From: Escherichia coli
Lineage (GTDB): Bacteria > Pseudomonadota > Gammaproteobacteria > Enterobacterales > Enterobacteriaceae
Reading direction: 5' to 3' (one strand)
NCBI RefSeq assembly: GCF_965641715.1
Contig: NZ_OZ282454.1
DNA length: 64,000 nt
Position 1 is the first letter of the stretch; each line of letters begins with the position of its first letter. A program made the translations under genes and the position numbers. Shown here piece after piece: positions 10,369 through 11,155 of the stretch. Under the pieces are notes generated by a model that ran no database searches, had not been told where the DNA came from, and saw only the letters and a list, made by a program, of their open reading frames with translations.

Positions 10369-11155
10369 AAGTCGCGACTAATACAATTCATGAGCACAAT
10401 TTCTCACGCCTTCGTCACACGCAGCCGGAAGATTTTCCGGTAGAGAAACTCGCCAGTTTTGCGGTGATGCAGTTAATGCTCAATCTGCACAACCCACAAA
10501 ATAAAAATCCGTACAAGCATGAAATGCTTGAACAGTTCCATGCAGATATACAGGATCACTTATCAGAATACATCCATTCGATAAATCAGTTGCCTCACAC
10601 AAATCCTGAGTTAATGGACGATCATTTCTATCTCAAAATTTTGCGCGTTGCTAATTCAGTTTCTTCCGAAGAAGATAAAAGCAGAGCGCTGTTTGTTTTG
10701 TTTGGACTTTTATCAATTCTGAATAAACCAACTCTATATGACAAAATCAATATATTAAGAAACAAGATTTTTGCTGGTATCCATACCATTGAGATTATTC
10801 ATACAGGCCATGATTTCGACAGCACTGAACCCAGACCGGCATTCGCAATAGCGCCCAATATCTTTTGTCTTTATAAAGATGAAAACAGAATTTATCTTCC
10901 TTTATCCCATAACTTTACTCTCAGCTTTATTACTGGCGTTGCATCATATTTCAATCCGCGAATAGACGTTTTTTCTCCTCGTCCCGAGCAGCTAAAATGC
11001 TGCCAAGACCGGAGCCTAAACTTTTTCAAGGTCTCGTTTGATTACATTGACAATGTAATGACAACAATCGATATGTATAATGTTGGTGGATTTGCCCCTA
11101 TATTTCCAGACACCTGTTATCACTTAACCCATTACTGGCCCGCTGCCGCAGATAT
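10369..11155 (+). pseudogene. Orphan protein fragment of unknown function, bounded by the IS481-type end and an IS21 istA breakpoint
   Basis: ORF 10359..11192 begins with GTG inside the IS terminal repeat and its last residues run into IS21 istA antisense sequence; no family recognised. Confidence 0.4.

Follow-up and report, generated by a model that had tools for sequence, protein, structure and literature searches.

A 64,000-nucleotide stretch of Escherichia coli plasmid DNA (contig NZ_OZ282454.1, assembly GCF_965641715.1; hereafter the window) contains an open reading frame (ORF) wedged between mobile elements, which raises the question of what gene it once belonged to, whether it still has a function and whether, as a first-pass annotation made from the sequence alone had proposed, it is what remains of a virulence or effector gene. 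Judged by its sequence, the open frame is the defunct middle part of a plasmid-borne gene of the DUF4238 family, cut at both ends by insertion sequences (IS). As a pseudogene relic the locus is ordinary and of a kind that annotations already cover, and it matters little in itself. The forward-looking point lies outside the window, as the intact parent cassette is a widely distributed plasmid candidate for anti-phage defence that escapes the models of PADLOC.

On the plus strand an uninterrupted frame runs from 10338 to a stop codon at 11190-11192, and its first start-type codon, a GTG at 10359, gives a product of 277 amino acids (aa). This chimeric ORF (10359-11192, plus strand) is composed of 9 codons from an IS481 end, 234 codons of the DUF4238 gene, 28 codons from an IS2 stub and 6 sense codons antisense to istA, followed by the stop. 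The native remnant (10386-11086, plus strand; 701 bp) comprises codons 97-330 of a 375-aa gene (parent protein WP_112030387.1 and its like) and is read in frame, with no stops and no frameshifts relative to the parent; it is the only stretch of the chimeric ORF that matches anything outside insertion sequences. The first-pass annotation was right that an internal piece of a larger gene had been cut by two insertions, here codons 97-330 of 375 between IS481 and IS2 termini. The open frame that it placed at 10369-11155 is real, lying inside the 10338-11192 frame, but is one base off in codon phase, and its length of 260 aa has to be replaced by 277 aa for the full ORF and about 234 aa for the native part.

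The fragment is 99.4% identical at the nucleotide level to the copy on plasmid p2017-02-2CC_1 (L001 5001-5701) and 99.7% identical, with 2 differences, to that on pRHB28-C15_2 from a UK pig farm (L020 6001-6701), so that the check proposed earlier, to look for an intact gene in related plasmids, yielded a 375-aa homologue on both; here and below, L001 and L020 denote the compared stretches of these two plasmids, L012 and L021 those of pPE041_2, and L015 that of pRHB38-C15_2 (CP057088.1). Overall, the fragment differs from intact alleles by 2-4 nucleotides. At least 262 plasmid records and at least 66 E. coli records cover the greater part of the query, and the gene is intact in nearly all. Identical chimeric junctions occur in four sequenced pig E. 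coli plasmids, the chimeric ORF is found in a 39-member protein cluster, and in pPE041_2 RefSeq calls it as a coding sequence (CDS) for a 'hypothetical protein', WP_236419298.1, an annotation to be corrected to chimeric pseudogene of a DUF4238 gene. The fragment is AT-rich, with 38.5% GC against 51% for the whole window, and family matches are wanting for the ORF itself, as might be expected had the frame arisen by chance in AT-rich DNA. This explanation can be discarded, given the 99.4-99.7% identity to an annotated gene that is under purifying selection and the more than 120 homologues, which extend down to 41% identity; a random ORF without homologues, the outcome that the first-pass annotation had set against its own reading, does not fit such identity to a gene with a dN/dS (ratio of nonsynonymous to synonymous substitution rates) of about 0.1.

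The left edge of the native sequence is formed by an IS481-family insertion sequence (9185-10385, minus strand; 1201 bp) with a transposase ORF at 9243-10328 and 26-bp imperfect terminal repeats, which read TGTATTAGCTCAGACCTGATCTGACA and TGTATTAGTCGCGACTTGATCTGACA and begin TGTATTAG. RefSeq labels its protein, WP_032191707.1, an IS481 family transposase, and element ends corresponding to 9185 and 10385 are common to the window copy and three further copies in pPE041_2. The transposase, the inverted repeats, the shared ends and two target duplications, one present at a single copy and one reconstructed across two, all accord with the IS481 family. The first of these duplications is a clean 7-bp repeat, GATAAAT, around another IS481 copy in pPE041_2. 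The window copy, in contrast, is flanked by TATAACA and ATTCATG (the latter at codon 97 of DUF4238), which do not match each other; the empty target in pRHB28-C15_2 (L020) reads ...TTGTATAACA / CTGACTCAAC..., with the slash at the point of insertion. The TATAACA duplication is split, as the window keeps the left junction, TATAACA followed by IS481, and a different pPE041_2 copy, beside umuC, keeps the right one, IS481 followed by TATAACACTGACTCAAC.... Because the flanking 7-bp sequences mismatch and the halves are divided between plasmids, the window copy is a recombinant of two insertions, one after parR and one into DUF4238. The GTG of the chimeric ORF overlaps the inner edge of the right terminal repeat, and the earlier remark that the first codon lies within an IS terminal repeat and that the frame has no native start is borne out (GTG 10359 on the 26-bp IS481 repeat).

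Copies of this element are found in varied company elsewhere. The 96-kb plasmid pPE041_2 carries four IS481-family copies with shuffled flanks (tpx; parR and an Ig-like adhesin gene; AIDA-I and umuC; an IS630 fragment). In pRHB38-C15_2 the IS481 copy is interrupted, at the equivalent of window positions 10304-10310, by a Tn1721-like transposon of about 11 kb, the cargo of which includes a TnAs1-family transposase, tetR/tet(A) and a PAS-domain chemotaxis protein, and the last 82 bp of the IS481 copy remain beside the DUF4238 fragment.

At the right edge, an 85-bp terminal stub of IS2, of the IS3 family (11087-11171, minus strand), starts exactly at the IS2 terminus, TGGATTTGCCCC..., and is 96.5-98.8% identical to annotated IS2 copies. 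From exactly 11087 onward the window agrees with two independent chromosomal IS2 copies, which also match each other from that base although their flanks are unrelated, so that identity begins at the terminal base of the element; after 85 bp the window departs from the IS2 sequence. The stub is followed by a 5' fragment of an IS21-family element (11171-11546, minus strand) that holds the N-terminal ~100 codons of istA, and an ORF at 11132-11473 continues from it into the IS2 stub. Over query positions 85-460 it matches an annotated IS21-family istA, and RefSeq marks the fragment as incomplete, with the C-terminus missing; IS66 fragments lie downstream. An identification of the sequence at 11087 as an IS100/IS21 end was considered and ruled out, as the search gave IS2. 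The right edge had originally been described as an IS21 breakpoint; it is the IS2 stub that abuts the native part, with istA beginning only at 11171. The accompanying statement that the last residues run into antisense istA is correct for the last 7 codons (stop included), but the IS2 stub comes first. Both edges of the gene fragment are thus true IS termini, IS481 on the left and IS2 on the right.

An alignment of 34 family members, the most distant at about 40% identity, has 48 invariant columns, and the window copy has lost 29 of these (25 in residues 1-96 and 4 after residue 330). The deleted N-terminal block includes the invariant motifs W13-T23, R32-W34 and F76-E86. The chimeric ORF gives no significant match in Pfam (including PF14022, the DUF4238 model), PADLOC or NCBIfam, and the lack of a PF14022 match follows from the deletion of most of the matched region. 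A promoter/terminator scan picked up nothing promoter-like that exceeded chance ahead of the start codon; the sole plus-strand promoter-like match (10359-10387) is no better than chance and would initiate transcription downstream of the GTG. An Rfam scan of 9000-12000 likewise found nothing above chance. These data suggest that the window remnant is very probably a non-functional pseudogene relic of the DUF4238 gene, that the chimeric ORF presumably yields no working protein and that the window copy should be regarded as a fragment of a DUF4238 member, not a functional member.

One point weighs against this reading, namely that the frame has no stop or frameshift and that the chimeric ORF recurs in the 39-member cluster, so that expression would be compatible with the sequence. 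An outward-facing promoter in the IS481 end, for instance, might then drive the 277-aa ORF, whose truncated DUF4238 product would have taken on a new role or act in a dominant-negative way, a proposal helped by the mere 2-4 nucleotide differences from intact alleles, by the identical junctions in the four pig plasmids and by the RefSeq annotation as a CDS. We consider this very improbable, as 25 invariant N-terminal positions are gone, the W13-T23 and F76-E86 motifs among them, and the only promoter-like match starts downstream of the GTG at chance level. Moreover, since the DNA is near-identical, the recurrence in plasmids reflects shared descent and not selection, and an open frame is expected in a young truncation; with 2-4 substitutions since divergence from intact alleles, the intact frame is uninformative on selection.

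The arrangement from which the fragment was cut is preserved in pRHB28-C15_2, where a gene for a 530-aa nuclease-like protein, DUF4238, korC, ccdAB, an integrase gene, parA, parM and parR follow one another with no break. There the gene for the 530-aa hypothetical protein (L020 4087-5679) precedes the DUF4238 gene (L020 5713-6840; QMG65649.1), which overlaps by 4 nt with a korC-like gene of 96 aa (L020 6837-7127), and the segment from ccdAB to parR lies within L020 7836-12260. The ancestral backbone order is also intact in p2017-02-2CC_1, in which the DUF4238 gene (L001 4713-5840; 375 aa) is annotated as encoding a "DUF4238 domain-containing protein". The block with ccdAB, the integrase gene, parA, parM and parR is shared with the window (4674-9184, plus strand), where it is collinear with and 99.3-99.4% identical to L020 7836-12260, and the collinearity stops exactly at the IS481 boundary. 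In pRHB28-C15_2 this block begins about 0.7 kb downstream of the DUF4238-korC pair, with DUF4238 about 1 kb upstream of ccdA, whereas in the window the DUF4238 piece lies downstream of parR. The block is bounded on its left in the window by an IS1 terminal repeat at 4644-4673. As homology to pRHB28-C15_2 starts exactly at 4674, this IS1 end forms a third breakpoint of the ancestral DUF4238-korC-ccdAB stretch. The losses at the fragment's locus comprise the 530-aa gene, codons 1-96, codons 331-375, korC and roughly 0.7 kb beyond it; comparison at both the DNA and the protein level found no other part of the parent cassette elsewhere in the window.

We propose that three insertion sequences entered the ancestral stretch, IS481 between codons 96 and 97, IS2 after codon 330 and IS1 some 0.7 kb past korC, and that another IS481 copy entered immediately behind parR, with TATAACA as its target. 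The two direct IS481 copies would then have undergone homologous recombination, joining parR directly to codon 97, with the other recombination product carrying off the 5' end of the gene (codons 1-96) and its upstream neighbour, and the IS2 copy may later have been cut to 85 bp by a deletion reaching into the IS21-family element. What lies to the left of the block made up of IS481, the fragment, the IS2 stub, IS21 and IS66 varies among three plasmids, being parR in the window and tpx in pPE041_2; in pRHB38-C15_2 the Tn1721-like tet(A) transposon splits the IS481 copy itself. This variety agrees with a recombinant IS481 copy. Two null results weigh against the scheme: no intermediate with the IS2 insertion alone or the IS481 insertion alone ranked in the plasmid or E. 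coli collections, and the reciprocal junction (codons 1-96, ending ...GATATCATTCATG, beside IS481) is absent from the window and pPE041_2. The junctions themselves can be read directly from the DNA; because no single-insertion intermediate was found, the order of insertion and deletion events is given here as we infer it.

The suggestion that the frame may be a remnant of a virulence or effector gene had been based on the setting, and the window does encode the precursor of STb (heat-stable enterotoxin II) at 2066-2281 (minus strand), about 8 kb away, with AIDA-I present on related plasmids. This STb gene lies, however, beyond the IS1 end (4644-4673) that bounds the fragment's ancestral backbone, and further IS copies are found between the two in related plasmids. 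The parent resides in a backbone stretch that is more than 99% shared with a region annotated only with CBASS (cyclic oligonucleotide-based anti-phage signalling system), ccdAB and par genes. Plasmids of Klebsiella, Enterobacter, Salmonella and Shigella also carry it widely, as does a chromosomal mobile element, and no similarity of the parent to a toxin, adhesin or effector was found in Pfam, NCBIfam, PHROGs or the PDB. It is therefore extremely unlikely that the fragment derives from a virulence or effector gene of the STb/AIDA-I virulence plasmid, and the candidate is struck from the list: the parent is a DUF4238 gene on a plasmid backbone with CBASS and HEPN genes, and experiments have tied its family to anti-phage defence (PMC9122126, PMC11350192).

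Turning to the parent, its protein matches the Pfam DUF4238 model (PF14022) with an E value of 1.5e-8 over residues 6-162, corresponding to model positions 1-145 of 281, and a precomputed PF14022 match is present in nearly all homologues. More than 120 homologues of 366-377 aa occur in Enterobacteriaceae, Vibrio, Aeromonas, Pseudomonas and marine bacteria. Intact alleles have dN/dS values of 0.09-0.11, and with a ratio of about 0.1 between intact copies the parent is a real, conserved gene. Its AlphaFold model (predicted local distance difference test, pLDDT, 87.5; predicted template modelling score, pTM, 0.87) can be aligned from end to end with numerous canonical DUF4238 proteins of AFDB50 (10-17% identity, E values down to 2e-9). 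These full-length fold matches argue that the parent is a divergent but full-length DUF4238 member, as judged from the predicted structure. The DUF4238 fold has no relative of solved structure, and a PDB sequence-profile search with the family alignment came back empty. Scans with PADLOC, NCBIfam and PHROGs gave no family for the fragment, the parent or the 530-aa neighbour; of the cassette genes, the small korC-like one alone had matches in these scans, to phage regulator families.

The cassette has been disrupted more than once. Independent truncated or frameshifted DUF4238 alleles of 231, 315 and 318 aa are seen, and in pMRSN346595_67.9 (L004 4444-6678) the 530-aa neighbour gene is interrupted by IS200C, which together indicate repeated disruption. 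The 530-aa neighbour protein itself (L001 3087-4679) has no Pfam match. Within its family D386, E400 and C401 are invariant and K402 is near-invariant, some members match NERD (best E 6.4e-5), and the family profile weakly matches the Card1 nuclease domain (E 0.014), with weak Mrr similarity as well. An obligate two-gene system formed by the 530-aa protein and DUF4238 is putative; distant homologues of the 530-aa protein stand alone, beside integrases and not adjoining DUF4238, which counts against such a pairing.

What the intact gene does is best approached through its relatives and surroundings. A lone DUF4238 protein encoded in a P2 prophage hotspot gives E. coli strong protection against T7 (Rousset et al. 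2022, PMC9122126), and Wang et al. 2024 (PMC11350192) name DUF4238 among the extra domains of newly validated E. coli TIR-containing defence systems, in at least one system. The intact cassette adjoins a CBASS pair (SMODS nucleotidyltransferase and S-4TM effector) and degraded HEPN genes or pseudogenes (L001 1-2879; L020 272-2203). Taken together, the DUF4238 cassette, the CBASS pair and the HEPN relics make up a small defence island within the plasmid backbone. In a chromosomal MobH element the DUF4238 cassette is found near RES and HipA genes. Relatives at 48% identity are separated by 30 bp from an upstream CAP12/PCTIR TIR protein, for which the PADLOC models PDC-S35 and TIR effector give matches, and have a 93-aa gene on their downstream side. 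In Pseudomonas, relatives are located at the edge of a prophage, behind an SRA-HNH type IV restriction enzyme. On contigs of the Vibrio harveyi group (L008, L009), DUF4238 relatives end arrays of small unrelated genes spaced by ORFs of ~29 aa, and these arrays look like a chromosomal integron cassette array.

Because of the mobile and defence-island settings, and because relatives are paired with TIR proteins, we lean towards a role for the intact parent in anti-phage defence, either by itself or together with the nuclease-like gene upstream, and not in virulence. Two comparisons speak against a defence role. The PADLOC DUF4238-Pers model did not match the parent or the fragment even at E values up to 10, with the validated P2 protein as positive control scoring 2.5e-217, and the family profile, when aligned to the validated protein with hhalign, gave a weak result (E 0.025, probability 1.9%) that covered the N-terminal ~90 residues only. 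The main rival explanation is that the parent serves in plasmid housekeeping or regulation and is transcribed together with korC, the relic then marking a lost maintenance function. The 4-nt overlap with the small helix-turn-helix (HTH) gene annotated korC, the nearby ccdAB and par genes and the failure of any defence-specific model to match the parent all speak for such a role, and we give it a minor though real chance. It sits poorly, however, with relatives off plasmids (the Vibrio integron-like arrays, the Pseudomonas prophage edge and the chromosomal MobH element), with relatives paired with TIR effectors and with the anti-phage activity of DUF4238 proteins (PMC9122126, PMC11350192).

Within the defence interpretation, the parent may belong to an undescribed DUF4238 branch missed by PADLOC, consisting of a conserved 370-376-aa DUF4238 protein, a small HTH gene and an interchangeable effector-like upstream gene, a suggestion we advance tentatively and hold to be somewhat doubtful. 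The interchangeable upstream genes would be, on an equally tentative footing, a TIR protein or the 530-aa PD-(D/E)xK/NERD-like nuclease, in a branch spread on enterobacterial plasmids. If such a branch exists, the repeated independent truncations would reflect a cost of carriage.

Several features of the wider window were noted in passing. Window positions 1-9300 are collinear with pPE041_2 18797-29431 at 99.9% identity, except for an extra IS2 in pPE041_2 at window 2659-2663; these 5 bp belong to both blocks of the alignment, a pattern like that of an IS2 target duplication, and the window represents the empty site. A pair comprising a RelE/ParE-type toxin (91 aa) and a CopG-type antitoxin (94 aa) lies at 13038-13597 (minus strand) and is so annotated in pPE041_2. 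The ~33 kb from 14346 to 47593 have no counterpart in the 50-kb compared part of pPE041_2 (L012), where traB is annotated as truncated, and the window plasmid may keep tra genes that pPE041_2 is without at that site.

Compared with known systems, the locus fits the IS-mediated mosaicism of F-type plasmids of porcine enterotoxigenic E. coli (ETEC), with exact IS termini, a split target-site duplication and differing sister flanks, and shows nothing unusual in this respect; it illustrates cleanly the way in which porcine ETEC plasmids are reshuffled by copies of IS481, IS2 and IS1. The parent resembles the DUF4238 system of the P2 hotspot in its PF14022 match and in an N-terminal motif (QHxLSQW.LRNF versus HHFLSQCYLKGF), and shares the overall fold class of canonical DUF4238 proteins, but it is 375 aa long against 309 aa, the relationship is very distant and protection by the plasmid subfamily is putative. 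With regard to the TIR and DUF4238 systems of PMC11350192, no adjoining and co-oriented TIR gene is present in the parent cassette or the window, and a TIR partner occurs only in the 48%-identical subfamily. These relatives have the order TIR, DUF4238, 93-aa gene, and thus the three-gene layout of the parent cassette, whereas the parent cassette carries in the upstream position a 530-aa non-TIR protein with an invariant D...ExK motif and weak NERD/Card1 nuclease similarity.
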